Shown piece by piece: positions 31,798-51,094 of a DNA stretch of 64,000 nucleotides. Source of the DNA: Candidatus Enterousia sp. GTDB taxonomy: Bacteria > Pseudomonadota > Alphaproteobacteria > Rs-D84. Position 1 is the stretch's first letter, and the number at the start of each line of letters is the position of its first letter. Location: positions 26,362-90,361 of the forward strand of contig JAZROX010000045.1 in NCBI GenBank assembly GCA_045648945.1. The letters run 5' to 3'. The translations under genes were made by a program, and so were the position numbers. The notes beneath the pieces are model-generated. The model ran no database searches. It was not told the DNA's origin and saw only the letters and a list, made by a program, of their open reading frames with translations.

Positions 31798-31906
31798 TCC
31801 CCTTCGCTGGCGAAGGGGACAGGCCACCAACGGTGGCGGGGTAGTGGCGTTGAAAAAAATTACGCAGCGAAATAAATTCCTTGTTTGAACCCGTTACCTG
31901 ACAGGA

Positions 31907-32866
31907 TTAATCATTCGGCATATATACCGGCGCATTTCCCATTGTAAAGAATCGATTTGCAACCGTATCGTACATGCCAATTGCATTATCATGCCGCGCC
32001 GGTACATAGTTATGAATCATAACATCGTTTTCATAAACAGTTATATACGCAATATCACCATCAAAAATAGAATGATTGGCATATTGTGTTGAAAAATCGC
32101 CTATAAACCATACGTATGCACTACTTGACAGCGTTCTGGTACCTGTATATTCAATTCCATTTATGGTTCCGTACATATTATCACGTGTTTTGGTGCGGTC
32201 CAATACATCTTCCATTGTGTACCATACTCCTGTAGTTATCGGAATAAGTTTCGATATATTGCCGCCCGCCGGATAATTCGGTACGGTTATTATATGTGGT
32301 GCCCAATAACCGTCGGCGGACACACCAAAAAACATGCCATTATCTGCACCAAAAATCGAGTTATATTTTGTGGTGGACAGGCTGTTAAACCGAAACTTTG
32401 CTTTGACTTTATATGTTTGCAGTGTTGGATACCAACCGTAATCTACTATCGCGTCTTTGGTTGATATGTGTGACAATGCCGTATATCCCGCGGGCATGTT
32501 TTGTTCCACAACACTGTTGATAGACACCAACCAACAATCCGTCGGGTCATTTGGGTTGTATTTTATACACGTGAATTCTGCGTCAATTGCATCCTGAACC
32601 CCGCTGTTAAAGTCACCGGCGGTGACCAAGGCGTCCGTTTGTTCGGCGTATTCGCCGGTCGAATCGTAAATATTTTTTGTGCCGACCGTGCCCGCGGTGC
32701 CGGTGTTGGTCAAAACCTGGGCTACGCCGTCATTCGCCGGAATTGCGTCTTGCTTTTGTGCGACCGCGGTGTCAACGAATGCCTTGGACGTCGCAACATT
32801 TTCGCCCGCCGCAAACACGTCACCAGCCATAAACCCACAAACCAAAAACGTTAAAATTTTTTTCAT
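31907..32866 (-). CDS. Secreted paralog-family protein A (conserved ~100-aa N-module plus beta-rich C-terminal domain)
   Basis: Signal peptide MKKILTFLVCGFMAGDVFA. N-module GENVATSKAFVD...KQDAIPA...VLTNTGTAGTVGTKNIYDS...CIKYNPNDPTDCWL is shared with the ORFs at 54289, 60209 and 60935. Confidence 0.6.
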   Translation of the reverse strand: MKKILTFLVCGFMAGDVFAAGENVATSKAFVDTAVAQKQDAIPANDGVAQVLTNTGTAGTVGTKNIYDSTGEYAEQTDALVTAGDFNSGVQDAIDAEFTCIKYNPNDPTDCWLVSINSVVEQNMPAGYTALSHISTKDAIVDYGWYPTLQTYKVKAKFRFNSLSTTKYNSIFGADNGMFFGVSADGYWAPHIITVPNYPAGGNISKLIPITTGVWYTMEDVLDRTKTRDNMYGTINGIEYTGTRTLSSSAYVWFIGDFSTQYANHSIFDGDIAYITVYENDVMIHNYVPARHDNAIGMYDTVANRFFTMGNAPVYMPND

Positions 32867-33201
32867 AATTTGCTTCCTTTGATTGAACAAAAATAACCGC
32901 CAAGAATCCTGACGGTCGGGGTGTTAGCAAATCACTCATGTTATTGATTCTGATGACCTTTACATATACGTCACCAGCACCCCGACATACGGGGGACTTT
33001 AATATTGCGGTGCAAAAACACGAAATTCGCAATGGATTACGATGCTTTGCACCGAACATGAGCGGGTCTGCTACGACCCCGAACACAGATTTCCATCTGG
33101 TTCAAGCGCATTGTATTAGAAAAAAATTTTTATGGCAAGTGCAAATTAGATTTTTATTTGCGTTTTGAAAAAAAATACTATATGATGGTGCCACGGTTCC
33201 A

Positions 33202-33295
33202 GGATGGTTGGCAGAGCGGTTGAATGCATCCGACTTGAAATCGGACAAGGTATGAAATAAGACCTTCGGGGGTTCAAATCCCTCACCATCCGCCA
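33202..33295 (+). tRNA. tRNA-Ser (anticodon UGA) with long variable arm
   Basis: Acceptor GGATGGT/ACCATCC, anticodon stem CCGA/TCGG with loop CTTGAAA, long extra arm, T-loop GGTTCAAATCC, discriminator G and encoded CCA. Confidence 0.85.
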
Positions 33296-33455
33296 GTAAA
33301 ATCGGGCATCCCGTGGTAATTCCACGGGATGTTCTTTTTCGCCCCGTTTCCGGCAGTTTTTATACACGACATTACCAGTATATATCATTGTTTTTACCAA
33401 CTATGCCATATTTTACCATATTTATATACCTTACCCAAAAACGCGATGCCACTTT
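33290..33455. repeat. Direct repeat copy 1: tRNA-Ser 3' end (last 6 nt), its terminator hairpin and ~130 bp downstream
   Basis: ccgccagtaaaatcgggcatcccgtggtaattccacgggatgttcttttt...attaccagtatatatcat recurs at 38922-39090 with ~90% identity over the first 100 bp, degenerating beyond. The terminator hairpin is at 33308-33339. Confidence 0.75.
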
Positions 33456-33570
33456 TGAGTGCTTTTTCTATTAAAACCAAACAAAAAAACAGTTTCTTGT
33501 TATGAAATTAGTTGACAAAAGTTTTTGATGTGTTATTTTATCGGTGATATAAATTCAAGGCGTTTATATT

Positions 33571-34692
33571 ATGTTGATTGATTATAAAAATTATGTTAGC
33601 TCTTTAATTCGTTTTTTTGCACAAAAAAAATGGGAATATTCCTTTTTAAATGGAGATGTTATTTTTATAAAAAACTATACTGATACTGTCACTAGAAAAA
33701 TTAAACCTGAATATTTATTGAACGACTCGCTGTTTTATTCAAAAGTTGTTGAAAGCTTTTCTGCTCTGAATATACCCGTCAAAATAATAAATTCAATAGA
33801 AAATAAAAATTCTGATACAGATTTTATAATTGCTGGATTACAATTAGCTAATAACTCTTTAAAGAAAGATATCGTGAATCACGAATCTTTTTACTCATTG
33901 CAACCAGTTGTGCGTTTAACAAAAACCTCCATGGGAGGACAAAACAATAATATGCTAACATCGTTTATAAACTTATGTTCGGTTGATATAAACACTTCCT
34001 TAGATGAATATATGCAACGTGTGGATCAATGGATTTCTGTTTTTTCGAACCTTTCTTTACATACAAGTGGCTTTAAATTGATAACCAAAAAAATCCAAAA
34101 TAATAGGTTTTATGATGGGGTACCTTTTTATAATGGATTAAAGTTAAAATTCGTGTATCAAAACGTTGATATAGCCGTTGCTAATTTGTTTACCGTTAAT
34201 TGTAAACAAGGTTCAATTCTGGTTTCTGATTTCGGTTCTAGCTATGAACGTGTGTTAGGATGTATCAATGGGAATGATAACTTTTTTAAACCCATATATC
34301 CTAGTTTTCAGGTTTTATATGGCAACTATGTTATAAACGATAGGTTGCGAACGGCAGTTCTGATGTGTATGTCAGGTATAACTCCTAGTGCACATGGCAA
34401 TGGACAAAAATTAAGGAATATAATAAAAGAGGCTACAACAGTACCAGAAATTAGTAGACTAAAAGAAGTCATAACTTATTATTATATGTATTATTCAAAG
34501 TTTATAAATTCTAAAATAGAGTTGCCGTATGTATCCAGTATGATAGAAAAAGAGATTGAACAACAGCAGAAAAAGATTATTTCTGGTAAATATGATAAAA
34601 AAAATGTTACTAAATCAATAGATAATGTTTGTAGCGAAATCATTTTGAAGCAAGTCTTGCAAAGACAATCTATGTTAACCAAATTTAAATAA
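33571..34692 (+). CDS. Hypothetical protein (AT-rich island gene 1)
   Basis: 373-aa ORF with island-type low-GC codon usage. No confident motif. Confidence 0.45.
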   Translation: MLIDYKNYVSSLIRFFAQKKWEYSFLNGDVIFIKNYTDTVTRKIKPEYLLNDSLFYSKVVESFSALNIPVKIINSIENKNSDTDFIIAGLQLANNSLKKDIVNHESFYSLQPVVRLTKTSMGGQNNNMLTSFINLCSVDINTSLDEYMQRVDQWISVFSNLSLHTSGFKLITKKIQNNRFYDGVPFYNGLKLKFVYQNVDIAVANLFTVNCKQGSILVSDFGSSYERVLGCINGNDNFFKPIYPSFQVLYGNYVINDRLRTAVLMCMSGITPSAHGNGQKLRNIIKEATTVPEISRLKEVITYYYMYYSKFINSKIELPYVSSMIEKEIEQQQKKIISGKYDKKNVTKSIDNVCSEIILKQVLQRQSMLTKFK

Positions 34693-34706
34693 TAAAAAGT
34701 TACATT

Positions 34707-36827
34707 ATGAATGTATTTGAGACCCCACAATTTTTTCGAGAAGAAATATTAAAACTTTCAAACTTAGTTAATCGTGAAGAAGATAAATATACTGGCAAGT
34801 CCTTAATCTGTGTTTTTTTTACATCCTATTGCGGTGTTGGTTGTCCTTTTTGCTTTTTTTCCAGCCCTTCTCCAATACATGGAGAAAATGTAGAAAATAA
34901 GTTTAATGCTGATGGAGTTGATAAATTTATAGAATTCGCTAACAGTGCGAATGTAGGATATCTGCAAATATCTGGTGGTGGTGAACCATTTTTAGAAAAA
35001 GAGGCTATTATAAAAAGTATAGAACATATCAATGCGGATAGAATAATTTTAGTAACCAGCGGCATATGGGCCTGTAATATTGAGAATGCTGAAAAATACC
35101 TATTAGATTTGAAAAATGCTTTAAGTCGTAGAACCAACAAAACAAGACTATCTATTAGATTAAGTGTCAGCAAAGATCATAATATTAAATTGAAAAATCG
35201 TCCTCTTTATAACTTATTACAATTATTTGAAAAAAAATATAAATATGACGAGGATTTCACATTACAGCTAAAGACCTTTGATAACGATGATACTTTGACA
35301 ACTTATCTGGACAAATTTAATCCTGGGTGCAAAATAGAATACATTGGTAAAAATTGTTCTGATGATGAAAATCATATCAAAGTTATGCCACAAAAATTCA
35401 GAGTAATTTTTGATTCTGGTTATTCAGTAATAATCGGTCAATCTAGAATTTTTAATTCCAATCTTAGACCAAATATGAATATTCCAAATTCTATTGCAAA
35501 TACAATTAATGTATACGATCAGGATACCTCACAAAGCCAGTCTGATTTTCCATCTCTAGTTTTTAATTCAAACGGAAAACCAGGAATAGATTGGATTATT
35601 GAGTACAATGGAAATGTTTGTGCATGGCAAAACCGTGTTCAAGACAATTTATTAAACATATATGAAGACAAGTATGATTATGTTGTGAATAAAACATTGT
35701 CAGATCCTTTGACTTTGTCTTTTATAGAAAAGGGCGCAAAATATAGAGAAAAAATCATACAAGAAGTTGCCCCGCACACCGTAAAATTGGTAAAGGCTGT
35801 TAGTATACGTGATTATGCTGGAACATTATTGTTTGAAGATGAAAAGACCAGACTATATTACACATTACGCGTTTTGCAAGATTACATGAAAGAAGGGAGA
35901 ATAAATCAAGAAATATTTAGGCAACTGCCTTCAGAGATTCGATCGATACTGCAATTAACACAACAAGATTTAGTCGCATTGTATAAAAAATCTAATTATT
36001 CAATATTATCACAAGAACTAAGCAAGAATCATAACGCACAAACTTTTGGGGATTTTTTAGAGTTGGTCAAACTAGGACACTATAAACTCAATGCGTATGA
36101 TATACAAAAAGCTATCAAATATTACAATTCCATAAGTGGTTGCCAGATAAGTAGTATAGACGAGATACCTCATTTGACGGGAATTGATGTCGAGAGACGC
36201 TTTACAAAAAGAGTAATGACAATGAAAAAATTAGGACAAAATACAACAGGTTTGAAACATATATACATATACCGTCACGGAGAAACTTTTTGGAATACAG
36301 AAGGTATTGTTAAAGGTCAAATGGATGATCTAAACGTAAGTTTTACTGATAAAGGGTTAGAACAAATAAATACAATTGCGCAAGATATGAAGTTTAATCA
36401 AATTGAAGAAATATATGCATCTGATTTGGCAAGAACTAAAAATACCGCTCTGTTAGCTAATACAGATTTACAGCTTCCATTATCTTTTCATTCTGAATTA
36501 CGCGCATTGAATATGGGAAAATATCAAGGAAAACCATTCAAAGATTTTATTAGTGATCCTGCTGTACAAACAGCTTTCATAAACCACGATATTTGCATTC
36601 CTGATGGTGAGAGCATTAATCAGTTAAATACTAGACTTTTTACATTTTTAAACAAAATTGTATCGCAAACCACAGCTAAAAATATCGCAATAATTATGCA
36701 TAGTGCAGCTATAAGCAACTTAAAAGCCTATATTACAAAAGAAAAATATGAAGATATAGAACGATGTGAAATTTTATATGCAAATAAAAAATTTACAGTA
36801 ATAAAAACTAGACAAAAGACGTATTAA
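34707..36827 (+). CDS. Radical SAM domain protein fused to a C-terminal histidine-phosphatase (PGM-branch) domain
   Basis: N-terminal CGVGCPFC (CX3CX2C) and GGGEPFL SAM-binding motif. C-terminal IYRHGETFWN (RHG catalytic motif) and IIMHSAA second His. 706 aa. Confidence 0.7.
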   Translation: MNVFETPQFFREEILKLSNLVNREEDKYTGKSLICVFFTSYCGVGCPFCFFSSPSPIHGENVENKFNADGVDKFIEFANSANVGYLQISGGGEPFLEKEAIIKSIEHINADRIILVTSGIWACNIENAEKYLLDLKNALSRRTNKTRLSIRLSVSKDHNIKLKNRPLYNLLQLFEKKYKYDEDFTLQLKTFDNDDTLTTYLDKFNPGCKIEYIGKNCSDDENHIKVMPQKFRVIFDSGYSVIIGQSRIFNSNLRPNMNIPNSIANTINVYDQDTSQSQSDFPSLVFNSNGKPGIDWIIEYNGNVCAWQNRVQDNLLNIYEDKYDYVVNKTLSDPLTLSFIEKGAKYREKIIQEVAPHTVKLVKAVSIRDYAGTLLFEDEKTRLYYTLRVLQDYMKEGRINQEIFRQLPSEIRSILQLTQQDLVALYKKSNYSILSQELSKNHNAQTFGDFLELVKLGHYKLNAYDIQKAIKYYNSISGCQISSIDEIPHLTGIDVERRFTKRVMTMKKLGQNTTGLKHIYIYRHGETFWNTEGIVKGQMDDLNVSFTDKGLEQINTIAQDMKFNQIEEIYASDLARTKNTALLANTDLQLPLSFHSELRALNMGKYQGKPFKDFISDPAVQTAFINHDICIPDGESINQLNTRLFTFLNKIVSQTTAKNIAIIMHSAAISNLKAYITKEKYEDIERCEILYANKKFTVIKTRQKTY

Positions 36828-36869
36828 ATGAGTATTATGTAGCTTGGTTAAGTAATAATCTAAGATAAG

Positions 36870-37586
36870 GTGTGTCCGATGAATGTATTATTGAACGGTG
36901 GTGGTTGCGCCGAAAAAACAAAAGAAATTTATACTTTTTTAAATAAAATCATAAACAATTCAAAACCTATATTGTGTATTCCCCTTGCCCGGGATAGAGA
37001 TGATAGTGGATATGAAAATTCTAAGGTTTGGTTGCAGAATGAATTAAATGACATTGATTATTCTGGTTTGGTTATGGCAGATTCATCCGATTATATATCA
37101 AAGATGAATTTAAATGATTTTGGATTGATTTACATTAGTGGGGGGAATACGTACAAATTATTGAAAGAATTAAAGGATACAGAAGCATTTAATAAAATAA
37201 GAGCCTATTTTCTTTCTGGTGGTATTATTTATGGATCTAGTGCCGGGGCGGCAATATTTGGCGCTTCTTTACGTTCCATAGCATATGCCGATAAAAACGA
37301 TGTTAAATTGCAAAATATTCAAGGATATGATTTGTTTTCCGGAATATCAATAGCCGCACACTATACTAATAAAAATGAAGAAAAAACTCAAATTGCAACA
37401 GAATACCTGATACAATTATCAAAAACTGAACCAGTTGTAGCTTTACCAGAAGAAGATACTATATATATACACGATGGTCTTGTTACCGTGTTTGGTTCTC
37501 GCGATTATTACATATTCAGGAATGGTGTTCGAAAAGCATTTACTACTGGCCAAACCATGCCAAAAGAAGTATTTTTGAATCTGTAA
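36870..37586 (+). CDS. Peptidase S51 family (dipeptidase E / cyanophycinase-like)
   Basis: ISGGNTYKL and GSSAGAAIFG nucleophile-Ser motifs typical of S51. 238 aa. Confidence 0.6.
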   Translation: MCPMNVLLNGGGCAEKTKEIYTFLNKIINNSKPILCIPLARDRDDSGYENSKVWLQNELNDIDYSGLVMADSSDYISKMNLNDFGLIYISGGNTYKLLKELKDTEAFNKIRAYFLSGGIIYGSSAGAAIFGASLRSIAYADKNDVKLQNIQGYDLFSGISIAAHYTNKNEEKTQIATEYLIQLSKTEPVVALPEEDTIYIHDGLVTVFGSRDYYIFRNGVRKAFTTGQTMPKEVFLNL

Positions 37587-37640
37587 ACATTACTGAATTG
37601 TTAAAATCAATTGATGTTGACAAATGTAAATTGCAGTTCT

Positions 37641-38525
37641 CTATTTTGTTGCCATTTTTTGGTTGCAGACTAATTGTCCGCATGCGCCTGCAATATCTTG
37701 TCCTTTGCTAATTCTAATAATTGTTTGTACACCTACGCTTTCCAATCTTTGTTTAAATATATTTGCTTTATCCTCTTTTGCACGAGACATTGAGATTGTT
37801 TGCGTTTCGTTATACAATAATATTTGAACTTTAAAATATTTAGGGTCAATCAATTTTATTAGGTCTGCTAAATGCTTTTCAGAATCGTTCACATTGTTTA
37901 TTAACATATAACTTAATGTCACTCTTTTATTGGTCTGAATTACATATTCTTTGCAAGCCCCCAACAGTGTGCTTATATCATATTTTTTATTAACAGGCAT
38001 CAGTTGTGAACGTTGGTTGTCGTAAGGAGAATGCAACGAAACAAAAAATTTGATGTTTTTTAATTCATTTTGTAGCGTGGCAAGCTCTGCTATTTTGTCT
38101 ACTATACCTACCGATGATATAGGAATTGTTTCCAAATTTGGGTCGTATTGGCTTATTCGTTTGCAAAAATGTTTCAAATTGATAAAATTATCTAGCGGTT
38201 CCCCCATTCCCATTACCACGGCACTATATTTAATATTTTCTGATTCTATATTTCTGTATATTAAATCAGACCTGATAAGTCTGATTTCATCCAGCATTTC
38301 ATTATGAGATAAGTTAGCATAAAATCCATTATGACCAGTTGCACAAAACAAGCAGTTCATTTTACAACCCGCTTGTGAAGATATACAAATATGGTATCTA
38401 TCGTACGGGATCCCATTTCTTTGGTTTATTCTGTAGTAAACAGCCTCGCACAAATTACCGAAATTTGTGCGAAATATGTACTTTATGCTTCCGTCTTGAG
38501 ATCTCAAAGAATTCAGAATTTTCAT
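37641..38525 (-). CDS. RlmN/Cfr-family radical SAM RNA methyltransferase homolog lacking the N-terminal accessory domain
   Basis: HICISSQAGCKMNCLFCATG, MGMGEPLDNF and C-terminal DIAGACGQL retain both mechanistic Cys of RlmN/Cfr. Only 294 aa (about 70 residues shorter at the N-terminus). Confidence 0.65.
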   Translation of the reverse strand: MKILNSLRSQDGSIKYIFRTNFGNLCEAVYYRINQRNGIPYDRYHICISSQAGCKMNCLFCATGHNGFYANLSHNEMLDEIRLIRSDLIYRNIESENIKYSAVVMGMGEPLDNFINLKHFCKRISQYDPNLETIPISSVGIVDKIAELATLQNELKNIKFFVSLHSPYDNQRSQLMPVNKKYDISTLLGACKEYVIQTNKRVTLSYMLINNVNDSEKHLADLIKLIDPKYFKVQILLYNETQTISMSRAKEDKANIFKQRLESVGVQTIIRISKGQDIAGACGQLVCNQKMATK

Positions 38526-38921
38526 ATAACAGACCCTTGCTAATTACATATTAGAATAAAAAAAACAAGTTTCAACCGGTTTTATATAAAAAACACAACA
38601 TTCAGCTTGTTATTAGAACACAGATATCCTGGTAATATACTTTGTATCAAATGTGGTGATTCTTGCATATAGACAAATTTTCCCAAATTTCGAACATCTT
38701 TTGAACCATAGGTAATATCTATTTGATATTACTTGATTGTTTGTAAAGACATTACTATCAAAAAGGTGCGTTTTATTTATCACTTTTTTTAACAATGTAA
38801 TCGGTGCTTTTCGCATAATTTTGGCTTTTGTGCACTACAAATATTGTTGGCTGTACTTGTTATAAAATCTATTTTTTCGTTCACACGGGCAAAACTTCCT
38901 GTTTTTCGAATACCTTTTGAG

Positions 38922-39090
38922 CCGCCAGTAAAATCGGGCATCCCGTGGTAATCCCACGGGATGTTCTTTTTTGCCCGATTTTCCGCAGTTTTTGGCTATG
39001 ATATTACCAGTGTATATCATCATCCGCGCCCAAACCGCCAAAATTCACCACAACCATATACCTTGCCCAATTTCCCGATGCCAGTTTTCC
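38922..39090. repeat. Direct repeat copy 2 of the tRNA-Ser 3'-end/downstream segment
   Basis: See 33290-33455. Includes a second copy of the terminator hairpin catcccgtggtaatcccacgggatg and its T-tract. Confidence 0.75.
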
Positions 39091-39145: not shown

Positions 39146-40162
39146 ATGGTTGATGCGAATTTAAAAACAGAAGCAAAATTGACGTTGCCAGAGAGGGTTG
39201 ATAATAACCTGGGTTATTCAATCAAAGTTTTGTCTGAAGGAGTAGCGTCTTTACTTAAACTTCCAGAGAAAGTTGTTGATACAGTCGTAATATCTGGTGC
39301 CACCTTGTTTAAACCATTGGTCGCATATTTTAACGGTAAGGCTACTATTATAAGTGCACGGAGTTTTGTGGAAACCCAAAATATTCGTAAAGAATTGAGT
39401 CAGTGTCAATTGGCAATCAATGTTGCAAAAAACTTGGCAATTAAACATCAATCTGGTCAAGAAATCCCGAAAGGAATTGTTGATACAGACACTTTATTTG
39501 CTATACAAAACGCAGCAGCAGAAACAACGGATAAAGATTTTTTGGAATTTTGGGCACACTTGTATACAGAAGAAGCATGCAAACCTAATACGATAAGCAA
39601 AAAAACTGTTGAATTATGTAAAGTATTAGATAAACAAGTTGCAGAAATTTTAGAAAAAAAGATATTCCCATACTGTGCTAGCGGATTCTTTTTTGCGGCC
39701 AGAGAATTTAGTGTTTATGAAGTTTCTAAAGCCGAAGATTATGGTTTCCTAACACAAAAGGATATTTTATTAAATCCAAAAGCTCCTAATGATAATGTAA
39801 TATTACAATTTGGTCAGTATACAGTTGTATGTAGAATTGGTTTCAGTGTTTTGCCATCACATCCAAATTTTTCATTATCTATGTCTGGAGAAGAAATACG
39901 AAATATAATTATTAATAAAGGTATGAATATTGACTTTGATATATTGATAAATTGTTTAAAAGAAGCTTCAAAAAATTGGCAATTATCTGATAAATTTAAA
40001 GACCATATTGTTAAATTTGTGCCAGGAAAACAAATTGATACAAATTTTATTGTTGTTCAAAATGATAAAATCATTTACCCGGAGAGTTGGCAGAATAAAT
40101 CTGTACGGGATTATAATAATGCATGTTTAGAAACGTTAGATATCAAATTAATACCAGCTTAA
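39146..40162 (+). CDS. Hypothetical protein (AT-rich segment beyond second repeat)
   Basis: 338-aa ORF. No motif recognised. Confidence 0.4.
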   Translation: MVDANLKTEAKLTLPERVDNNLGYSIKVLSEGVASLLKLPEKVVDTVVISGATLFKPLVAYFNGKATIISARSFVETQNIRKELSQCQLAINVAKNLAIKHQSGQEIPKGIVDTDTLFAIQNAAAETTDKDFLEFWAHLYTEEACKPNTISKKTVELCKVLDKQVAEILEKKIFPYCASGFFFAAREFSVYEVSKAEDYGFLTQKDILLNPKAPNDNVILQFGQYTVVCRIGFSVLPSHPNFSLSMSGEEIRNIIINKGMNIDFDILINCLKEASKNWQLSDKFKDHIVKFVPGKQIDTNFIVVQNDKIIYPESWQNKSVRDYNNACLETLDIKLIPA

Positions 40163-40785
40163 TATAATTGATTTTCTCCAGCAATTGTGAACAAATCATT
40201 AACGTTGATTTTTAATTTTCCAGACAAGATTTCATTGATTTTGTCTGGGTTCATGTATGCGATGTCCAAATAACGATAAAACTGGCGCGGGGACGTGTGC
40301 AGATTGCGGATGATATTATCAACCCCACCATCGCGTTCATATAATTCTCGATACTTCCATGCGGTGGCAAAGGCTTTTAGAATCAGATGGTTGTTGTCGG
40401 TGACATTTAATATACCGTTTTTACCACGGTCGTATACCGTGTTGACGTATTTGCGTAAGAATACTTTTTCAGTAATTGTTATGCTGTTGTCGCCAATTAT
40501 GTATTCCATTTTATCCGCATTTTGGTTTACATAATGTTCAGATACAAATTGTTGCAATTTTGCGGAATCGGTCGTAATTGTATAAATCAGCTGTTCCTGC
40601 GAACACACAACTTTTTCAATCAGAGATTGAATTAAATTGCGTTTTTCTGCGAAATTCATGTTTGCAATATCTATGTGTTTTAATGTAGTGGCCAGGTTTA
40701 TGGGCAGATTCGACATATCACTGTTCAGAAAATCTGTTATCGTTTTTATAACAATTTCATCTACTACGCTAAGCATGCCAAACAA
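40159..40785 (-). CDS. Hypothetical protein
   Basis: 208-aa ORF. No motif recognised. Confidence 0.35.
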   Translation of the reverse strand: MFGMLSVVDEIVIKTITDFLNSDMSNLPINLATTLKHIDIANMNFAEKRNLIQSLIEKVVCSQEQLIYTITTDSAKLQQFVSEHYVNQNADKMEYIIGDNSITITEKVFLRKYVNTVYDRGKNGILNVTDNNHLILKAFATAWKYRELYERDGGVDNIIRNLHTSPRQFYRYLDIAYMNPDKINEILSGKLKINVNDLFTIAGENQLY

Positions 40786-40823
40786 CCTTTTTATGACTTG
40801 TAATTATCAGATTGACATATTTT

Positions 40824-41603
40824 TTATTCTCTGCCTTTGCCTAGATTTATGTGCTGTTGTTCCGACTTCATGAGTTTATATGTCTTTGCACCAGGCTTTG
40901 ATATGATTTCGGTCATCGTTTGATTGTTTTTATCATCTGTTTGAACCATAATTGCGGCCCCTTCATCAACAGCGTATCCCCATTTGTTTTCTTTGGTTAG
41001 CATCTTCCTTATAGAATTTCTGGACACAGAACCTTCAACATCTTTGTTTTCAGATTTAGTATTCCAATGTGGAACGAAATATCCACGAACCAACCCCAAT
41101 GCTGGTTTTGTTTTGAGTGTTTCAAGATTGCCGCTGTCAAAATCATCATCTTCATCGTTGCCATAATACTCAAACCAAGCACATCCACCGGCACTATTAC
41201 CCGCCATAATTATCCCTTGGTCGTATGCTTGACGTAATAGCTTATCAACCCCCGTATCACTCAACACTTTCATGAGATACGTGACATTGCCACCACCAAC
41301 ATAGATAATATCTGCCCCTAAAATAATCTTTTTAAGATCATCTGCATTTGGTCTTTTGGAAGCGTCAATCAAATTCAAATTTTCTACAACACATCCAAAT
41401 TGTTCAGTAAAATACTTTTCGATTGCCAAGAAACGAGATAAATCATCACCATGTGCAGCACCAATAAATACCAGTTTTGGGTGCTGTTTGCCGGTAAGTT
41501 CTACCATTTTTTTATCAATCTCGAATGTTTCCATCGGCTTTTGTATTCCATTCTTCATCTGACCAAACGAACCACCACCGATTGCAATAACGGTTTTTGT
41601 CAT
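40824..41603 (-). CDS. Peptidase S51 family (cyanophycinase/peptidase E-like), second copy
   Basis: GGGNVTYLM and AGNSAGGCAW motifs. 259 aa. Confidence 0.55.
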   Translation of the reverse strand: MTKTVIAIGGGSFGQMKNGIQKPMETFEIDKKMVELTGKQHPKLVFIGAAHGDDLSRFLAIEKYFTEQFGCVVENLNLIDASKRPNADDLKKIILGADIIYVGGGNVTYLMKVLSDTGVDKLLRQAYDQGIIMAGNSAGGCAWFEYYGNDEDDDFDSGNLETLKTKPALGLVRGYFVPHWNTKSENKDVEGSVSRNSIRKMLTKENKWGYAVDEGAAIMVQTDDKNNQTMTEIISKPGAKTYKLMKSEQQHINLGKGRE

Positions 41604-41700
41604 TTTGTATTTCCTTGTTTAATTTTATGGTAATTATAACATATCCCCCTGTAAATTGCTACATTTTTGTGGTATAGTTATTGAAACAAAAGGATAAAAA

Positions 41701-42270
41701 ATGTCTGAATTTGTAAAACCAGAAGAAATAATTGTTGATAATTTTGTGTTGCGACCGATCCCGGCGACAAAGGAATATGCACAAATGATATATGATATCT
41801 TTGTTGCGGACACTGAGACCTTTCGGCACTGGTTTCATGGTGGTATGTGGAAATCTGCGGATGAAGTCCTGGCATATTATCAAAACAAAGCAAAAAATGA
41901 TGAACCTAGATGGAAGTACGCCATGTACGGTATATTCAAAGACGGTGAATTGTTGGGTGAAATCGGTCTAAGCGGCATTGACACCCGGAACCAAACCGGC
42001 CAAATCGGATATTGGTTGAAAAAATCTGCACGTGGTGCCGGGATTGTTGATAAATTGATCCCAGCTATCGAAAAATTGGGCTTTGAAACCCTGAATTTGC
42101 GTAAGATTGATATATCATGCGACACCGATAATATTGCATCTCGCAGGCACGCCGAGAAAAATGGCTATGTGCTTGAGGGGGTAAACCGAGAAAGAGATCT
42201 GTGGCGCGACGGTTCCATCCACAGCACATCCATGTTCGGCAAATTGAAATCTGAATGGAATAATAAATAG
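41701..42270 (+). CDS. GNAT N-acetyltransferase (RimJ/RimL-like)
   Basis: 189 aa with an acetyl-CoA-binding motif region RGAGIVDKLI. Confidence 0.6.
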   Translation: MSEFVKPEEIIVDNFVLRPIPATKEYAQMIYDIFVADTETFRHWFHGGMWKSADEVLAYYQNKAKNDEPRWKYAMYGIFKDGELLGEIGLSGIDTRNQTGQIGYWLKKSARGAGIVDKLIPAIEKLGFETLNLRKIDISCDTDNIASRRHAEKNGYVLEGVNRERDLWRDGSIHSTSMFGKLKSEWNNK

Positions 42271-42395
42271 CCTTGCCCCGTTTTTATATAAATCAGGGCT
42301 GTCACATGGCCCTGAATATTTTTTATCTACCCGCTTGACAAACATATTTTTTAGTGTTATATATACCACCAGACAATAACCAAAAGGGGTCTGTA

Positions 42396-43250
42396 ATGAG
42401 AAAGAGTCTGAATCAAGAATTAAGAGAAGCGTTTGTTGCTAATGATGCAGAACGCGTAAAATCTTTGTTGGCCGCTGGTGCTGATAAGAATCGCCGTGTA
42501 AGAAATGAATATCTGTTATGTAATTGCAGTCACAACGAGACAGAAGAAAATATTAAAGTTACAAAAATGCTGCTTGATAATGGTGCAAACCCTAACTGGG
42601 TTGATCCGGATCCGAGTTGGTATGAAACTCCATTGATGGAAAGTTTGTACTATTTTAACTTTAATCTGGCGCAATTATTGATTGATAACGGTGCCAAGGT
42701 TAACATGCACAGCAGTGGTGACACGCCGTTGACATGGTTTGCCGGCCGAACCGATGATGGTCATTTGGCAACTATTAAATTCTTGCATAAAAACGGTGCA
42801 AACCTTGATGCCAAGAATTATAAAGGCCAAACAGCCCTTATGAGAGTTGCTGGATTTGACACTATCATTTCTGCTGATTTGTTTTGCGATAAAACCGATT
42901 GGCTTATTGAACCGATTGAATATTTGTTATCGAAAGGTGCGAAAGTCAACCTGCGTGATAAGGAAGGCAAAACCGCATTGCTGCATTCGTTGGGTCAAGA
43001 TTGGAACAAATATTACAGTTGGAACAATGAAACGGCACTTCAATACAAAGACAACTTTTCGGCGACTTTCTATTATGAAATTCCAACGATATTGTTGTCA
43101 AACGGTGCGCATGTAGGCATAAAAGATAAATCTGGTAAGAATGCCATGAATTATGCGGCGGCGGATGAAGAAAAAATGGACTTGTTCGCACGTGCAATCG
43201 ATGATTCAAACAAATTCTTGCACAGAAAAATCGTTGTTATGTCCAGATAA
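42396..43250 (+). CDS. Ankyrin-repeat protein
   Basis: At least five ANK repeats (LLAAGADKN, LLDNGANPN, LIDNGAKVN, LHKNGANLDAKNYKGQTALM, LLSKGAKVNLRDKEGKTALLH). ATG at 42396 preferred over the track start. Confidence 0.75.
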   Translation: MRKSLNQELREAFVANDAERVKSLLAAGADKNRRVRNEYLLCNCSHNETEENIKVTKMLLDNGANPNWVDPDPSWYETPLMESLYYFNFNLAQLLIDNGAKVNMHSSGDTPLTWFAGRTDDGHLATIKFLHKNGANLDAKNYKGQTALMRVAGFDTIISADLFCDKTDWLIEPIEYLLSKGAKVNLRDKEGKTALLHSLGQDWNKYYSWNNETALQYKDNFSATFYYEIPTILLSNGAHVGIKDKSGKNAMNYAAADEEKMDLFARAIDDSNKFLHRKIVVMSR

Positions 43251-43277
43251 AAAGACAATAACCAAAAGGTATAAAAA

Positions 43278-44105
43278 ATGAAAAAACGTTTTCCAGGGGT
43301 CAACCCCAAAGAAATCGCCAAACAAGAGGTTGCAAACGCAACTGGCATCAGCAGAAGCACCTTTATGGATGAAAAAGGTATTCCTTCAGCCGGTGATTTG
43401 CACCCTGTTTATGTCAAACCGTACAGTAAACCGAAGTTTGATTTAAAAACATGGCTGTTGACGAATTTAAAGGTAAATTTGTTTGCACCGATTTTTTGGG
43501 CTGTGATCTTTGGTGGTATAAACGAGTATGACCACCCGATACGTGCGATGTTTTATAACGTTTATAACCCAAAACCAAAAGCACAGTCGGAAAAAAGCCC
43601 GGTGCTGGGAATTGAAACGAAAAACAAGCCGTTTTTCTGGGTCAATTTGTCGTTTGCATTATCATATATGCTTCTAACTGCTGGCATCTTAATGCGTCAT
43701 TACCGCAAAGATAAACGTAGCGAGACAGCAAGATTTGCAAATGAAAATGCAACAGTTGACATGATGTTGGCGATTAAATCCATAAAAGAAGCCGGTAAAA
43801 AAGTCAACTTGAACGTAACGGATGAAACCGCCAAGAAACTGATCGAGGTATGTCCGCATATTATATCACGCATGTCTGCCGATGAACGTGTCTATTTTGA
43901 TATGCTGATTGACGGTGATATTGAAAGCAAGAACGAGGAAATGTTCAAAAACTTTGCTCTTGCGGTTATGGATGGACACTTGCGTTCAAATCCGGAAGAT
44001 TTGCAGATGGTTTTGGATGCCTTTGATGAAACATCCATCGCATTATTGCTGTCAGATATGTACAGACAAAATCTGTTATCTCAGCAAAAGCAAAAAAATA
44101 AATAA
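43278..44105 (+). CDS. Hypothetical membrane protein
   Basis: 275 aa with two central hydrophobic helices. Terminator hairpin at 44108-44136. Confidence 0.45.
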   Translation: MKKRFPGVNPKEIAKQEVANATGISRSTFMDEKGIPSAGDLHPVYVKPYSKPKFDLKTWLLTNLKVNLFAPIFWAVIFGGINEYDHPIRAMFYNVYNPKPKAQSEKSPVLGIETKNKPFFWVNLSFALSYMLLTAGILMRHYRKDKRSETARFANENATVDMMLAIKSIKEAGKKVNLNVTDETAKKLIEVCPHIISRMSADERVYFDMLIDGDIESKNEEMFKNFALAVMDGHLRSNPEDLQMVLDAFDETSIALLLSDMYRQNLLSQQKQKNK

Positions 44106-44133
44106 TAAAAGGCCCTCGTTTGAGGGTCTTTTT

Positions 44134-44688
44134 TTAATCTGTTTCTTTACGTTTTTCATAAATCAGAGAATCGCATTTGCCGACACATTTGGCCCATGAT
44201 GCCATTGGCAAGCGTTTGACCAATGTATACCCGTTGCGTTTGGCGACATTTTCAGACATTGTGTTCCCATCGTCTATGTCCAGCGTGATTTTATCAAAAC
44301 CAAATGCAAATAATTCGCTTTCCAGTGCAGTTAATGCCTCACTCATATAACCATGCCCATTTTCCTTTTTAACCAGCCAGTAACCGATTTCACAGCCATT
44401 ATCGTGGATATCAAAGAACCGGATCCGTCCGATAATGTTATCATTCTGGTAAATATAAAAACACACACCTTGATTTGTTTTGATTTGATTTGCCCGTTTA
44501 TTTAAGTATGCCACCACATCTTCAACGGTGTTTAGTTCGCCAAAGTGCCCCTGCCATTCCATAAAATAATCACGATTTTGATCAATAATACTCAAAAGCT
44601 TTGTTGCGTTTTCTGCTGTGGGCGCAACCACACGCAACACCAATCTTGGTGTCTTGATCTCGGTTGGAAATTGCGATAATGCTTTCAT
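44134..44688 (-). CDS. GNAT N-acetyltransferase (RimL-like)
   Basis: 184 aa with a GNAT core. Confidence 0.6.
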   Translation of the reverse strand: MKALSQFPTEIKTPRLVLRVVAPTAENATKLLSIIDQNRDYFMEWQGHFGELNTVEDVVAYLNKRANQIKTNQGVCFYIYQNDNIIGRIRFFDIHDNGCEIGYWLVKKENGHGYMSEALTALESELFAFGFDKITLDIDDGNTMSENVAKRNGYTLVKRLPMASWAKCVGKCDSLIYEKRKETD

Positions 44689-44740
44689 TTGTCTTCCCTG
44701 CCATGCACAAAACTATTAACTATATTTGTACATCTATTGA

Positions 44741-45652
44741 TTACTTGCGTTCTTTGCTTTTATTTATAGTATTTTTCTCAAACCATTTTATGTAATCGGA
44801 CATGGTCCATTCCTGTTCTATTTTATCATGCAGTTTACTTATCATTAAATACTTATGATTTGTACTAAAAGTATACAATTCCCCGTTTATATTTAATAAT
44901 AGTACTCTATAATCTCCATCTTGAGGTTTGATAACTTTTATCGGCAATTTGGAATCTTGCATTAATTTACAGAAATTATATACATTACCGGGTCCATTTG
45001 AATTTATTTGTTTTAATACCGTTTCTATTGCCGCAACAATTGTTTTTGTCTTTCTGTCGCGCTTTGATCCATATTTCAGAAAAGTTCCAAAATCAGAACA
45101 CTTTTTCTCATATTCTGGCCATGACATAACCGCTGTTATTTCGTATGGTATGCCAGCCATACGTTCTTTTATGTGATGTATCTTATTGCCAACTTTTATT
45201 TCATCCATAATGAAAGGGATATCTGGATAAAGTGGATGACATGATCGGTGTTCAACTATATTTCTCTGCGGTTCGATGGCATACCATTTACCATCGCCCA
45301 TTTTCACACATGGTAAAGTATGGTTAGCTTTACTATCTATCAAATGGTCTGGATGCGTGCTTATCATAATCTTAACTTCTAATTGCTCGTTTTTTGGCAG
45401 TGTTGAATTTAGATAACAAAATGTTTTGGCTTCGGTTCCGCACGACCATTGATAACCGCTTTCATAAATATCTTTGCCGCTTATTGCAAAAAAACGTTCG
45501 AAATCTGTAGATTTTTCGGTTATACCTGGGTAATTCTTGGTTCTGTTGATAAGTATATCAGCTTTATCACCCGCGTCTCGATGTTCTGGGTGCCGTTGTT
45601 TTTGCAATATAGCTTTAATCGAATTTATTCTTTGTTCGTCTGTCATAGTCAT
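44741..45652 (-). CDS. Hypothetical protein with possible transglutaminase/papain-like Cys-His core
   Basis: YQWSCGTEAKTFCYL resembles the catalytic-Cys region of transglutaminase-like proteases. Downstream His/Asp candidates. 303 aa. Confidence 0.35.
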   Translation of the reverse strand: MTMTDEQRINSIKAILQKQRHPEHRDAGDKADILINRTKNYPGITEKSTDFERFFAISGKDIYESGYQWSCGTEAKTFCYLNSTLPKNEQLEVKIMISTHPDHLIDSKANHTLPCVKMGDGKWYAIEPQRNIVEHRSCHPLYPDIPFIMDEIKVGNKIHHIKERMAGIPYEITAVMSWPEYEKKCSDFGTFLKYGSKRDRKTKTIVAAIETVLKQINSNGPGNVYNFCKLMQDSKLPIKVIKPQDGDYRVLLLNINGELYTFSTNHKYLMISKLHDKIEQEWTMSDYIKWFEKNTINKSKERK

Positions 45653-45668
45653 AATTATACCATATTTT

Positions 45669-47057
45669 TTAGTTAATTATTATCTGTTTGTCTACATTTA
45701 TATTTTTTGCAAACATTTCATCATGCGACACCAACAATATCGCACCACGATATTGATTCAATGCGTCTTCCAGTATCGCAATACTTTTGATTTCAAGGTT
45801 GTTAGTCGGTTCGTCCAGAATCAGCAAGTCAGGCTGATTTTCGCCGCCCAGTATTGCCGCCAATGTCGCCTTTAATAATTCCCCACCCGACAAAACACAT
45901 GCGCGTTTATTTGACGCGTCCCCGCGGAAACCAAAGTTCGCCGCAATCGCATGTGCATCGTGTTTCAAAACGCCAGAGATATCCATTATATTTTCAACAA
46001 TGGTTTTATCCCTGTCCAGCACCGATAAATCTTGATTCAAATACGCAATTTTACCAAATGTTTTAACTGTGCCGGATTCTGGTTTCAAATCACCACAAAT
46101 GATTTTAAGTAAAGTGGATTTGCCCGAACCATTTTTGCCGGTTATACGAATGCGTTGCCCACCGTACATAGAAAAATCAAACCCGTTAAAGATGCGCCGG
46201 TTGCCATATCCAAAACCCAGGTTCGATATTTGAATCAGTTCTTTGCTGTAAAACGGCTTGCTGGGCAACGGAATTTTGATTTTATCATCCACCATTTGTG
46301 CCGATAATTCCGCCTGCAAATTCATTTGTGTATCCAGTTTCTTTTGAATTATTGCACGCTTTTTTGCTTCGGTCTCAATGCTTTTCCCTTTAAGGGCATT
46401 TGCATCAATACGGCTGCGGCGTGCATTGGCGATTTCTTTCTTTTGCTTTGCCTCGTGATGTTGCCGCGTATTCTGGGCTATGTTGATAGTCTCGGTCAAA
46501 CGGCCAATTTCTTTTTTGGTATTCACATATTTGGAATATATGGTTTCTTGCTCGGCGCGTTTTTGTGCAACATAGAAATCATAGTTTCCGCCATAGACTT
46601 TGATTTTGCCGTTTGCTATTTCAATAATTTTATCCATTTTCTGCAATAATTCCCGGTCATGGGATACAATTACCGTCCCGAATGGGTAAGACATCAAATC
46701 ATTGAAAAATCGTTGTTTGGCATCACTGTCCAGGTTATTTGTCGGCTCGTCCAGCAACAGTATCGCCGCACCGCTGTTAAATGCACGACGCAGTTCGGCA
46801 CTTTGCCGTTCACCGCCACTTTTGGAATCCAATGCGTTTATTTGATTCAGCATGTAAACGGACGCATTTCGTGCAACATTGCCAGCGTCCGGCACGATAT
46901 CACCGGCCAACAATTTCAACAGTGTTGTTTTGCCGGAACCATTGTCGCCAACAATCGCGACCCGGTCTGAATCAGAAAATGCAACAGACACACCATCCAA
47001 AATCGGATTTAATGAATCATAAGAAAAAGATACTTTTGATAAAGAAATTACGAACAT
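45669..47057 (-). CDS. ABC-F family ATPase (tandem ABC domains, no TMD)
   Basis: Two Walker A motifs (GDNGSGKTTLLK, GKNGSGKSTLLK), two LSGGE signatures, and an interdomain linker rich in K/E/Q. 462 aa. Confidence 0.75.
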   Translation of the reverse strand: MFVISLSKVSFSYDSLNPILDGVSVAFSDSDRVAIVGDNGSGKTTLLKLLAGDIVPDAGNVARNASVYMLNQINALDSKSGGERQSAELRRAFNSGAAILLLDEPTNNLDSDAKQRFFNDLMSYPFGTVIVSHDRELLQKMDKIIEIANGKIKVYGGNYDFYVAQKRAEQETIYSKYVNTKKEIGRLTETINIAQNTRQHHEAKQKKEIANARRSRIDANALKGKSIETEAKKRAIIQKKLDTQMNLQAELSAQMVDDKIKIPLPSKPFYSKELIQISNLGFGYGNRRIFNGFDFSMYGGQRIRITGKNGSGKSTLLKIICGDLKPESGTVKTFGKIAYLNQDLSVLDRDKTIVENIMDISGVLKHDAHAIAANFGFRGDASNKRACVLSGGELLKATLAAILGGENQPDLLILDEPTNNLEIKSIAILEDALNQYRGAILLVSHDEMFAKNINVDKQIIIN

Positions 47058-47280
47058 GATAAAAACCTTTTAATATTGTAACCAACGGGCGCATATTTCT
47101 ATGCACAGTTTATTCAGATAAGAATTACAATATTACATACGCATCGGTTTTTATCCTTTTGTTTCAAGGGAATTCTAGCATATTGAGCCCAAAAGTCAAA
47201 TTTTATTTTTGTGCAATATGTTTGTTGACCTGGTATGTTTTGTGGTACAATGGCTCTATAATCATAACAGAGGGGTTATC

Positions 47281-48420: not shown

Positions 48421-48453
48421 CATCATAAAACAACCGCTAAATTGGCGGTTATT

Positions 48454-48840
48454 TTATATTTGATGTTGGTCATCTGGTTTGGTACTGTTTTCTATATCCT
48501 GCACCGCACTCATTGCACCAACCACTTTTGTCCCTTCAAGCAATGATTGCCGTGTCACCCGCCGTTTCTGTGTAAATCCAGCTTTATCTGCAAACATGAC
48601 CGTTTTGCCATAGCCAGTTGGCAATTTAAAATAACTGTGTGCTATTTGTTCGTCTGTAAATTTGTCGGACACAAGTTCACGAAAAACCTCAAGTTTTTGC
48701 TTGTCACGCCACGTGGGCCAGGCATCTGCATCGGCTATCTGCCTAGCAAGACCCGCACGTAAAAGTTCTACATCTGTTGTATCCATATTTAGACCCACCT
48801 TATGGCTTGTATTGTACCATAAAAAATTGATATGTACCAT
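48454..48840 (-). pseudogene. Remnant of a helicase/type III restriction-like N-terminus (Q-motif plus motif I only)
   Basis: EQIAHSYFKLPTGYGKTVMF (Walker A-like PTGxGKT) with no downstream helicase motifs. 128-aa ORF. Confidence 0.3.
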
Positions 48841-49333
48841 AAAAACGACAAATAGCGCCCAAATACAGACAAGTTATATTTCTCTCTTTTGTGCCGGTTT
48901 TTGTCGCATCAAATTATAATCTGCCATCATCTTAGCAACGGCCCCTGGTAAATCTTTTTTTATTGCATCAACGGTTATGTATGAATTTGCAAAAGATTTT
49001 TCAAACATTTGCTGAACCACATTTGAAAAATGAAAAAAGTTGCTTAATATGCAAAAAAAAGAAATATGCAAAATAAATTAATATTTATGTATGGGAAATT
49101 GTGCAACAGAATTCTATTCCGCCAGTATTCTCAGGATTACGGTATCCTACATAAAAAGCCTGCGGTTCTGCGGGATTTTTCATGCGTTGACTTATGCTTG
49201 GGCGAAAAATGCCCTTTTTTACGCCATAATATTCCGCTTTCTATACCCCCCCATGTTCCGATAGTCAAAAGACAAAACAAGTTGAACTTATGCGCAAAAC
49301 ATTTATAATATAAACCATGTATAAGAAAAAGGA

Positions 49334-50413: not shown

Positions 50414-50564
50414 TATTGCGTATTTAGGTATGGGAAAGTTTGCAACAGAATTTCTCCCCGCCACGAATAGAAAATGTTCGATTAGGCCTTATATTCAACG
50501 GTCAAAAAACTTGCATACAATTTCTATTTCATTATAATCGAAACAAAAATTAAAGGTTCGGCCA

Positions 50565-50876: not shown

Positions 50877-51094
50877 CAAATGGCGGTTTTAAACGCGGGA
50901 CATTTGTTGCGGTACAACGCCAACTTTTCGGTGCCTATTGACTTTTAAATAAAATGTCCTATAATTAAAGGCATGAAAACAGAAATTGCATTTTGTTCGT
51001 TCACTTGGTGGCTGTAGTCACAGCCAGTATTTTTCACACCCATTATATTTTTTAACTTCATTTAGTTTAATCAATTAAACCAAGGATTTTTATT

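Follow-up and report, generated by a model that had tools for sequence, protein, structure and literature searches.

Imperfect direct repeats at a tRNA-Ser gene of Candidatus Enterousia are probably the left ends of tandem remnants of large serine recombinase elements

Why does a long, imperfect direct repeat start inside the 3' end of a tRNA-Ser(TGA) gene, recur downstream of it and enclose a 5.6-kb block of genes? The question is raised by a 64-kb stretch of DNA from Candidatus Enterousia sp. (the window, by which we mean the whole stretch analysed), and the original prediction had answered it in two ways: serial insertions into the site downstream of the tRNA, or an element carrying its own copy of the tRNA-proximal sequence. 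Comparison with related loci indicates that both readings hold together. The two copies of the repeat, hereafter T1, are probably the left ends of two element remnants or units lying in tandem at tRNA-Ser, produced by serial integration within a family of elements that carry a large serine recombinase (LSR). What look like two left ends stand in tandem in the window while a close relative shows the single-element state, as serial insertion would have it; furthermore, T1 travels with LSR elements, beside two different tRNA-Ser genes and at ends that are not tRNA, as would a sequence that an element brings along.

The related loci, numbered L001 to L108, include 80 that were returned by a genome scan with the neighbouring NrdG protein, all from uncultured gut or rumen Alphaproteobacteria and many named Candidatus Enterousia, a lineage with genomes below 1 Mb (PMC12306168). 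A second collection, a metagenome scan using the T1 hairpin, gave 16 stretches. The T1 profile was built from 19 distinct T1 sequences of at least 150 nt from the window and the related loci; altogether T1 occupies 26 places, namely 2 in the window and 24 in the 23 related loci that carry it.

The tRNA-Ser(TGA) gene (33202..33295, plus strand) is intact and functional (ARAGORN; Rfam tRNA, 57 bits), represents a 94-nt allele with an AT-rich anticodon stem and variable arm, and is the one tRNA that ARAGORN and Rfam report in the window. As had been predicted, the repeat begins in its last 6 nt: copy A (T1a) lies at 33290..33456 and copy B (T1b) at 38922..39088, both on the plus strand and 167 nt long (nhmmer E = 3e-52 and 8e-55, respectively). 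Each opens with CCGCCAG, which takes in the final 6 nt of tRNA-Ser(TGA) and one additional base (33290-33296 and 38922-38928), and continues with a 12-bp GC-rich hairpin and T-run that form a terminator (33307-33339 and 38939-38971), followed by about 110 more bases. These include the left and right arms of an inverted repeat (33371-33386 and 33423-33438 in copy A, 39003-39018 and ~39055-39070 in copy B) and an end motif, CGATGCCACTTTT at 33444-33456 in copy A and its counterpart at 39076-39088. The announced decay of identity with distance from the tRNA is borne out, as the copies agree in 48/49 of the first aligned columns, 21/31 of the next segment and 56/82 of the distal segment, their longest common exact run being 31 nt; homology stops past CGATGCCA(C/G)TTTT, at 33456 and 39088. 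A repeat search of the window recovers the same pair, and the profile gives these 2 copies only, with no third T1 and no further tRNA-Ser 3' end in the 64 kb.

Rfam, over the region and over the whole window, matches only the tRNA, and the only features that RNAalifold recovers from the 19 T1 sequences are the terminator and a 9-bp inverted repeat with a 39-nt variable spacer, with a covariation term of -0.28 kcal/mol. T1 was hence rejected as a structured RNA; the arms of the inverted repeat are conserved in sequence, and this repeat fits a protein-binding DNA site better than an RNA. A small open reading frame (ORF) in the distal part was dropped as well, the frame being kept, by eye, but the start codon not being consistent. 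The possibility raised earlier that T1 is a repeat dispersed genome-wide, and with it a reading as an intergenic repeat of the repetitive extragenic palindrome or miniature inverted-repeat transposable element kind, finds no echo in the sequences examined, with 2 copies in 64 kb and every copy in all 23 related loci placed at a tRNA-Ser 3' end or at an element end.

A relative without the block, whose search had been proposed as a check, exists. L001 is the locus nearest to the window (amino acid identity of 96% for NrdD, 95% for ABC-F and 97% for a 303-aa ORF; flanking DNA ~78% identical), and there the order is nrdG, tRNA-Ser(TGA), T1, DUF2806 and an intact 534-aa LSR, with downstream genes as in the window. 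Its T1 is 91% identical to copy B over 175 nt and it has none of the four genes of the block, which is likewise absent from all 80 loci of the NrdG scan. L001 thus displays the empty state of the window block, that is, a single-element state; L006 and L007, as well as L004 and L002, display other states of occupancy. Exact-protein look-ups for NrdG, DUF2806 and TrpS, which sought strain-level empty sites, found no record.

What L001 holds intact survives in part behind T1b. A DUF2806 cargo gene (Pfam PF10987; 39146..40162, plus strand) occupies the slot between T1 and the recombinase gene, and the minus strand then encodes a 208-aa LSR remnant (40159..40785), the C-terminal third of the protein, which aligns to residues ~330-530 of the intact 534-aa LSRs of L001, L104, L097 and L088 and from which the catalytic N-terminal two thirds are absent. 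Intact LSRs of ~534 aa lie next to the arm, in the same position and orientation, in these four loci and in L107, and L003 and L041 have a copy that is full-length but internally broken. Those proteins that are intact give matches to Pfam Resolvase and Recombinase, and to phrog_95 'integrase' at 2.5e-96. The arrangement in these loci is constant, with T1, one or two variable cargo genes and then the LSR gene on the opposite strand; the cargo consists of DUF2806, a TIR/SEFIR protein, a NERD-like protein (by eye only), an HNH protein or a CoiA-like protein, and a DUF2924 gene lies directly upstream of the LSR gene in L003, L041, L097 and L107 and one gene further in L001. An LSR gene or fragment is found on the opposite strand within ~2.5 kb downstream of T1 at 14 of the 26 places (12 of the 19 distinct T1 sequences), to which L088, with the same arrangement but a diverged T1-like arm, adds one extra case. 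The element of L097 goes on with DUF2924, a ParB-methylase, DUF5681 and a terminase, which makes prophages of at least part of the family; contiguity of L097 with L093, on the same human-gut contig, which would have allowed a complete element to be sized, could not be demonstrated.

The recombinase associated with these repeats is a large serine recombinase and not a tyrosine integrase of the tRNA type. Pfam gave no recombinase family among 21 large ORFs between 33 and 53 kb, and Phage_integrase matched neither these nor the 10 largest ORFs of a second island of the window and its flanks; the N-terminal part of the LSR and a DUF2924 gene were not found anywhere in the window. Since only the 208-aa stump remains, the window array is not a working member of the family and is best filed as a remnant array, one that is probably frozen. 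In L088, 83-nt imperfect direct repeats (5795-5876 and 6516-6596; 83-89% identity) surround a single CYTH-domain gene at the start of the LSR gene, in what appears to be another small integrase-less insertion with long flanking repeats.

The point at which elements and targets are joined can be read from the variety of junctions. In close relatives, sequences unrelated to T1 and provided with different terminators (T2, T3 and T5) follow the same tRNA after CCGCCA(G). Conversely, T1 has several left partners, which in the 16 metagenome stretches are tRNA-Ser(TGA) (7), tRNA-Ser(GGA) (5) and short tRNA-like tails or a conserved motif called M, made of TGTATGGGAAATTGTGCAACAGAAT, 6 nt and CCGCCA (3); in the last stretch T1 is so near the end of its contig that the left partner is not visible. 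Over all loci, T1 stands behind tRNA-Ser(TGA), in either of the two alleles described below, tRNA-Ser(GGA) in L092, L097, L098, L101 and L102, and arms that are not tRNA in L041, L091, L093, L105, L107 and L108. The same right-hand sequence even swaps partners, T3 being joined to the tRNA in L006 and to M in L007, and T2 to the tRNA in L004 and L007 and to M in the window; T2 also stands directly 3' of tRNA-Ser(TGA) in L061. Left partners thus comprise either tRNA-Ser gene, M, another arm or a partial tRNA, right partners T1 to T5, and only CCGCCA(G), 6-7 bp, is common to the tRNA/T1, tRNA/T2-T3-T5, M/T1 and M/T2-T3-T4-T5 junctions. That the same right-hand sequences occur after a tRNA or after an M arm points to CCGCCA(G) as the shared junction, and the pattern is that predicted for attB, attL, attR and attP attachment (att) sites with a common 7-bp core; half-site spacing was judged too speculative a guide to the crossover position. 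The repeat had been judged too long for a typical att core, and at 167 nt it is, precisely because the part common to all junctions measures only 6-7 bp.

Tandem junctions of the same type are found in L041 and in a 'viral' contig, IMG/VR_UViG_3300029904_000303 (L107/L108; 37.5 kb), in which two LSR+T1 modules lie 14.7 kb apart. T1 occurs twice there without a tRNA, each copy being joined through CCGCCAG to an M-type or other right-hand arm, and M/CCGCCAG/T1 is contiguous; the contig looks like a tandem element array rather than one free genome. Stacking would therefore seem normal for this LSR family. Also encoded on this contig are a third DUF2924 protein, a terminase, proteins of the HSP70-like and AAA types, and a reverse transcriptase whose neighbour measures 1290 aa. 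Several TTCCCTGT repeats accompany the right arms in L041, L093, L107 and L108 and are absent around the junctions of the window; the exact T1 hairpin pattern had no match in IMG/VR.

The two copies differ in their closest relatives, segment by segment. The proximal part of copy A is nearest to that of copy B and to L091 (48/49 in both cases), its middle part to L096 (28/31), which is linked to the 94-nt tRNA, and its distal part to L095 (51/55), linked to a 90-nt tRNA. The distal part of copy B is identical to that of L001 (82/82), despite flanks that are only ~78% identical. These differences suggest that copies A and B have different ancestries and that recombination has shuffled segments at several points. 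Beyond copy B the affinity changes abruptly, since the next 53 nt are nearest to L098 (52/53) and the DUF2806 protein is 98% identical to that of L098, located beside tRNA-Ser(GGA), versus 74% to its positional counterpart in L001. The end of T1 accordingly has the appearance of a recombination boundary at which cargo genes are exchanged.

To the left of copy B, similarity to a tRNA reaches ~44 nt further than had been described. The stretch 38878..38921 (plus strand) corresponds to positions 41-84 of a 90-nt tRNA-Ser(TGA) allele, and together with the CCGCCA that follows to positions 41-90, in other words to a decayed 3' part of the gene. Its local alignment score is 29, against 13.2 +/- 1.9 for shuffled sequences, none of 500 shuffles reaching this value, and the blastn alignment of the window with L001 runs into the tRNA of L001 from position 38887. 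The 5' half is not significant (220/1000 shuffles reach its score), and the fragment does not resemble the 94-nt allele, which is the functional one in the window. About one third of its positions differ from the 90-nt allele, mostly by G/C to A/T changes, a divergence that would be roughly that of unconstrained DNA at the window-L001 distance. L091 and L105 offer a parallel, as the last 13-21 nt of the sequence left of CCGCCAG/T1 there repeat the 3' end of a tRNA-Ser isoacceptor.

Both alleles circulate in the group. The 94-nt allele is identical in L003, L005, L006, L008, L025, L096 and L103, and the GC-rich 90-nt allele, that of most relatives, is present in L001, L002, L004, L007 and distant relatives; the window's allele departs from it in nt 20-66, that is, in the anticodon stem and variable arm, nt 1-19 and the last 28 nt being identical bar one T-loop base. 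Their patchy distribution among close relatives suggests repeated recombinational replacement of most of the tRNA-Ser(TGA) gene. The partial tRNA may be either a displaced half of the resident gene or the tRNA-like right arm of an incoming unit, and a later allelic exchange that gave the whole 94-nt tRNA is plausible because T1a mixes a segment linked to the 94-nt allele with a segment linked to the 90-nt allele. In L002, L004, L007 and L060, a diverged copy of the first ~35 nt of the tRNA lies ~157 nt upstream of the functional tRNA-Ser; it stops within the anticodon loop, from where a conserved spacer of ~120 nt leads to the full gene, and this breakpoint is common to the upstream copies and to the 3' fragment of the window.

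These observations can be assembled as follows. T1 would be the recombinase-proximal att arm of prophage-like LSR elements and would also supply the terminator of the tRNA, M-type sequences would form the opposite arm, and the shared core, where insertion takes place, would be CCGCCA(G) at the 3' end of tRNA-Ser genes. The distal unit (T1b, DUF2806 and the LSR stump) would be the older resident, counterpart of the intact element of L001, and the proximal unit (T1a and a four-gene cassette) would sit between the working tRNA-Ser and the older junction, the decayed tRNA 3' half acting as separator. Partial tRNA copies do separate the units of the window, be it this half, at 38878-38927 with its tail, or the CCGCCA tails that end M arms further downstream. 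If copies A and B came from two different elements, their distal halves would be expected to diverge, and if their proximal 50 nt were homogenised or used as a crossover region, near identity would be expected there. The proximal unit might have been inserted by a recombinase that acted in trans on the tRNA/T1 junction, or might have come in by homologous, Campbell-type recombination inside T1. Catalysis by the LSR and the order of arrival are our best reconstruction, as is the present immobility of the array.

Several points weigh against this scheme. Intact recombinases, whatever their kind, are absent from 33 to 52 kb, and catalysis by the LSR is argued from its association with T1 in other genomes; relatives of the cassette, moreover, are lacking among IMG/VR viral contigs. 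To our knowledge, canonical serine integrases recombine attP with attB only and do not use occupied sites. Tandem arrays accordingly need a relaxed target rule or homologous recombination, an occupied tRNA/T1 junction being expected to be no substrate. The separator is a tRNA-like 3' half broken near the anticodon loop and not an M arm, for which an LSR crossover at CCGCCAG alone is inadequate, and, as the working tRNA is entirely of the 94-nt allele and the fragment of the 90-nt allele, whole-gene replacement or a later allelic exchange is also needed. Lastly, since recombination seems to have its boundary also at the distal end of T1, a part of T1 might be a landing pad and not an element end. 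A bolder extension, which we consider rather doubtful, is that the occupied tRNA/T1 junction stays a target at which integrase-less units with no more than a T1 arm and a tRNA-like right arm, such as the four-gene cassette unit, are inserted, and perhaps moved, in trans by the serine recombinase of a neighbour; if true, tRNA-Ser would serve as a cassette platform in sub-1-Mb genomes, in breach of the rule that restricts recombination to attP and attB.

Among other explanations, the one that survives best dispenses with site-specific recombination for the block. A circle bearing T1 and the cassette, either the genome of an infecting element or an excised circle, would have recombined with a resident T1 through RecA-type homology, and the imperfection of the repeats would be that between donor and recipient. 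The identity profile is that of one crossover in the proximal 50-60 nt, the mosaicism at several T1 boundaries is of the kind that homologous exchange would leave, and the CYTH gene of L088 between its 83-nt imperfect repeats and the many integrase-less units at the locus are in keeping with it. We nonetheless regard it as unlikely, although the strongest competitor, since the donor circle must already have carried a partial-tRNA/T1 junction, 50-100 nt of homology is short for efficient RecA recombination, and the CCGCCA(G) shared by all junction types is left unexplained.

A single integrative island, with the 5.6-kb block inserted by one tyrosine-integrase event and the repeats as its attL and attR, is the reading that the geometry first evokes: direct repeats that start inside the 3' end of a tRNA bracket a low-GC block, a partial tRNA stands at the distal repeat, and another low-GC island of the same window is bracketed by 26-nt tRNA-Asn fragments. 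It is improbable all the same. No integrase lies in or near the block, the distal halves belong to different lineages (B with L001, A with L095), copy B and the genes downstream of it exist in L001 without the block, as the left end of another element, and just 7 bp are common to all junction types. Furthermore, the homology of the block with other copies of the cassette starts only past T1a, at ~33482 in the comparison with L088. The repeats do bracket the 5.6-kb block, as was proposed, yet they would represent the left ends of two neighbouring units and not the attL/attR pair of one island.

Three further explanations have very little to recommend them. A tandem duplication within the genome of tRNA-Ser with T1, after which the copies diverged, one tRNA decayed and the cassette was inserted between them, would yield two tRNA-like sequences in direct orientation, each followed by T1, but the two tRNAs belong to separate alleles, each of which is found among relatives, the distal halves of T1 are each closer to another genome than to one another, and only the 3' half of the second tRNA is detectable. 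Chimeric assembly of two strains or loci at a shared T1 is conceivable for a contig of a metagenome-assembled genome, the more so as the L060 and L095 contigs end inside T1, a sign of difficult assembly at this place, but the longest exact shared run (31 nt) is below usual assembly k-mers, the junction is flanked towards the block by unique sequence, namely the decayed tRNA and a 350-nt AT-rich spacer, and tandem junctions of the same kind recur in independent assemblies. A duplicated host non-coding element, small RNA or regulatory leader, downstream of tRNA-Ser genes would account for the identity of copy B and L001 amid diverged flanks and for promoter-like motifs near the end of T1, but T1 has no Rfam family and almost no covariation, occurs without a tRNA next to LSR modules and is lacking behind the same tRNA in many close relatives.

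Under the favoured interpretation of two stacked LSR-family units, the cargo of the proximal one is a cassette of four genes on both strands (33571..38525), with a GC content of 0.31 versus 0.44 upstream and without a recombinase; the low-GC array as a whole begins at 33296. Pfam, NCBIfam and PADLOC scans identify a radical-SAM/histidine-phosphatase fusion (34707-36827, plus strand), an S51 peptidase (36870-37586, plus strand) and an RlmN/Cfr-like radical-SAM protein that is short by ~70 N-terminal residues (37641-38525, minus strand). The first gene (33571-34692, plus strand) encodes a 373-aa protein with no match in Pfam, the PDB or PHROG, and was annotated by AlphaFold2 and Foldseek: the 22 best structural matches of its low-confidence model (predicted local distance difference test score of 61) are all alanyl-tRNA synthetase (AlaRS) catalytic domains (E 1e-7 to 2e-5), and 8 of 9 sub-threshold profile hits against PDB sequences are AlaRS. 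We tentatively consider it an AlaRS-like paralog of the class II aminoacyl-tRNA synthetase catalytic domain; no Pfam model exists for the family, which counts 311 cluster representatives.

The other three genes reappear as a unit, with amino acid identities of 59-72%, in each of the 3 unrelated contexts examined (L081-L090). In L081 the unit lies beside tRNA-Gly and a DNA-methylase/HNH cluster, with a 90-aa ORF in place of the first gene; in L082-L087 it is downstream of tRNA-Gly and tRNA-Tyr genes, with a 320-aa first ORF that has no detectable similarity to that of the window; in L088-L090 it comes with the first gene, at 66% identity, in an island by tRNA-Ser(GGA) that has an intact LSR. 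The cassette thus appears to be horizontally mobile and widely transferred. Homologs of the radical-SAM/histidine-phosphatase fusion are found in Patescibacteria, Clostridia and Alphaproteobacteria, and the four genes may form a small-molecule or RNA-modification pathway. DUS/USS-type uptake sequences, counted with a transformation-driven cassette in mind, numbered zero.

Downstream of copy B the succession of units appears to go on. A first M arm (49088..49124, plus strand; CCGCCA tail at 49119-49124) is followed by T2-type tRNA-downstream sequence (49118-49200), and a second one (50427..50463, plus strand; tail at 50458-50463) precedes a Trp leader and trpS; between T2 and the second arm lies a one-gene unit with an S66 LD-carboxypeptidase (49334-50413). 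These two arms, T2 and the one-gene unit suggest that the stack continues to ~50.5 kb, just before the leader and trpS. From 39146 to 50463 it contains two S51 peptidases (a third being that of the cassette), two RimL-like GNATs, the S66 enzyme, which is MccF-like, and an S41 peptidase, and trpS adjoins it. The stack is thereby rich in enzyme kinds that detoxify aminoacyl-nucleotide antibiotics, and the link with immunity is an association that we presume. A Trp-sensing leader peptide is suggested by the short ORF MKTEIAFCSFTWWL* at 50973-51017, which has a pair of Trp codons and closely precedes trpS (51095-52093); similar sequence precedes trpS in L007 and, more loosely, in L008.

Elsewhere in the window, an exact 26-nt direct repeat (7261-7286 and 15962-15987), which on the minus strand spans the part of tRNA-Asn between anticodon loop and T-stem, encloses a second low-GC island (7287-15961). 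The copy at 15987-15940 extends to the full tRNA 3' end and terminator, but lacks the 5' half and is not called as a tRNA by any tool. This island carries a DpnII restriction-modification system, a Gabija-like pair of OLD-ATPase and UvrD helicase, and DUF5677, and no integrase was found among the 10 largest ORFs of the island and its flanks. Relative to L001, the window also has an insertion (31799-33151) between nrdG and the tRNA promoter, with a 327-aa ORF of no matching family (31907-32890, minus strand), distant homologs of which are carried by L006 at the same spot; a 300-nt stretch at 54800-55099, inside a gene for a 304-aa paralog (54214-55128), is 74% identical to part of that insertion.

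The array is reminiscent of several known systems. Integrase-less cargo in tandem with a related element that has, or had, a recombinase is what the cis-mobilizable elements (CIMEs) beside ICESt1 and ICESt3 of Streptococcus thermophilus display, where cargo flanked by att-type sequences stands in tandem with a recombinase-bearing relative. Those systems use a tyrosine integrase and identical att cores, and their mobilisation was demonstrated experimentally, whereas the present array is known from its sequence. With the prophages of Bxb1, phiC31 and mycobacterial Int-S type, the T1 family shares a ~530-aa Resolvase and Recombinase protein beside the att site, a short core and cargo or 'moron' genes between the integrase gene and the att site, as well as the terminase and other phage genes seen in L097. 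Serine integrases have common cores of 5-8 bp, compared with 25-76 bp for tRNA sites of tyrosine integrases, and the mycobacterial Int-S prophages integrate inside protein-coding genes, which they disrupt (PMC8092301). Unlike them, the T1 family is located at tRNA-Ser 3' ends and leaves the tRNA intact, and its tandem arrays are not predicted by the attP x attB rule.

A related recombinase, annotated as 'site specific recombinase large subunit', is encoded by the Acidithiobacillus prophage AcaML1; its identity to the L001 LSR is 41%, across 71% of the length. The target of this prophage, 'srrA', may be the tmRNA gene, which would make it tRNA-like, and the Int recorded for the prophage is presumably the matching recombinase. 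Table 2 of the report on AcaML1 lists it at 'srrA' with 10-bp direct repeats (PMC3826726); host class and target differ from those of the T1 family, and this listing gives no sign of a long conserved arm or of tandem arrays. The closest likeness in layout is with the tycheposon arrays of Prochlorococcus, in which adjacent units lie 3' of one tRNA with partial tRNA copies between them, elements are degenerate, integrases fragmented and the cargo mostly accessory or defence genes (10.1101/2020.12.28.424599). Newer arrivals are thought there to push older ones outward, and tRNA-Ser(TGA) is among the tRNA labels of a figure legend of that work, in which 910 of 937 elements have a tyrosine recombinase, the separators are att motifs of ~40 nt and a small minority carry large serine recombinases (10.1101/2020.12.28.424599). 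The T1 family differs by its LSR, its 7-bp core and a repeated unit that is a 167-nt arm including the tRNA terminator.

Serial integration at a tRNA is hence of a known kind, and current ideas on island formation are not overturned; what deserves attention is the unusual pairing of a serine recombinase family with tRNA-Ser 3' ends, its stacking and the cassette. A conspicuous repeat finds its explanation as a junction scar, and ends and a common core are defined for a family of serine-recombinase elements that had gone undescribed, in gut Alphaproteobacteria that are uncultured and have reduced genomes (Ca. Enterousia, order Rs-D84). The M/CCGCCAG/T1 sequences are candidate att arms that can be tested as recombination tools, and tRNA-Ser 3' ends would join the short list of RNA-gene targets of serine integrases. 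For organisms whose genomes are below 1 Mb, an accessory stack of ~16-17 kb at one tRNA represents a large share of the flexible genome.

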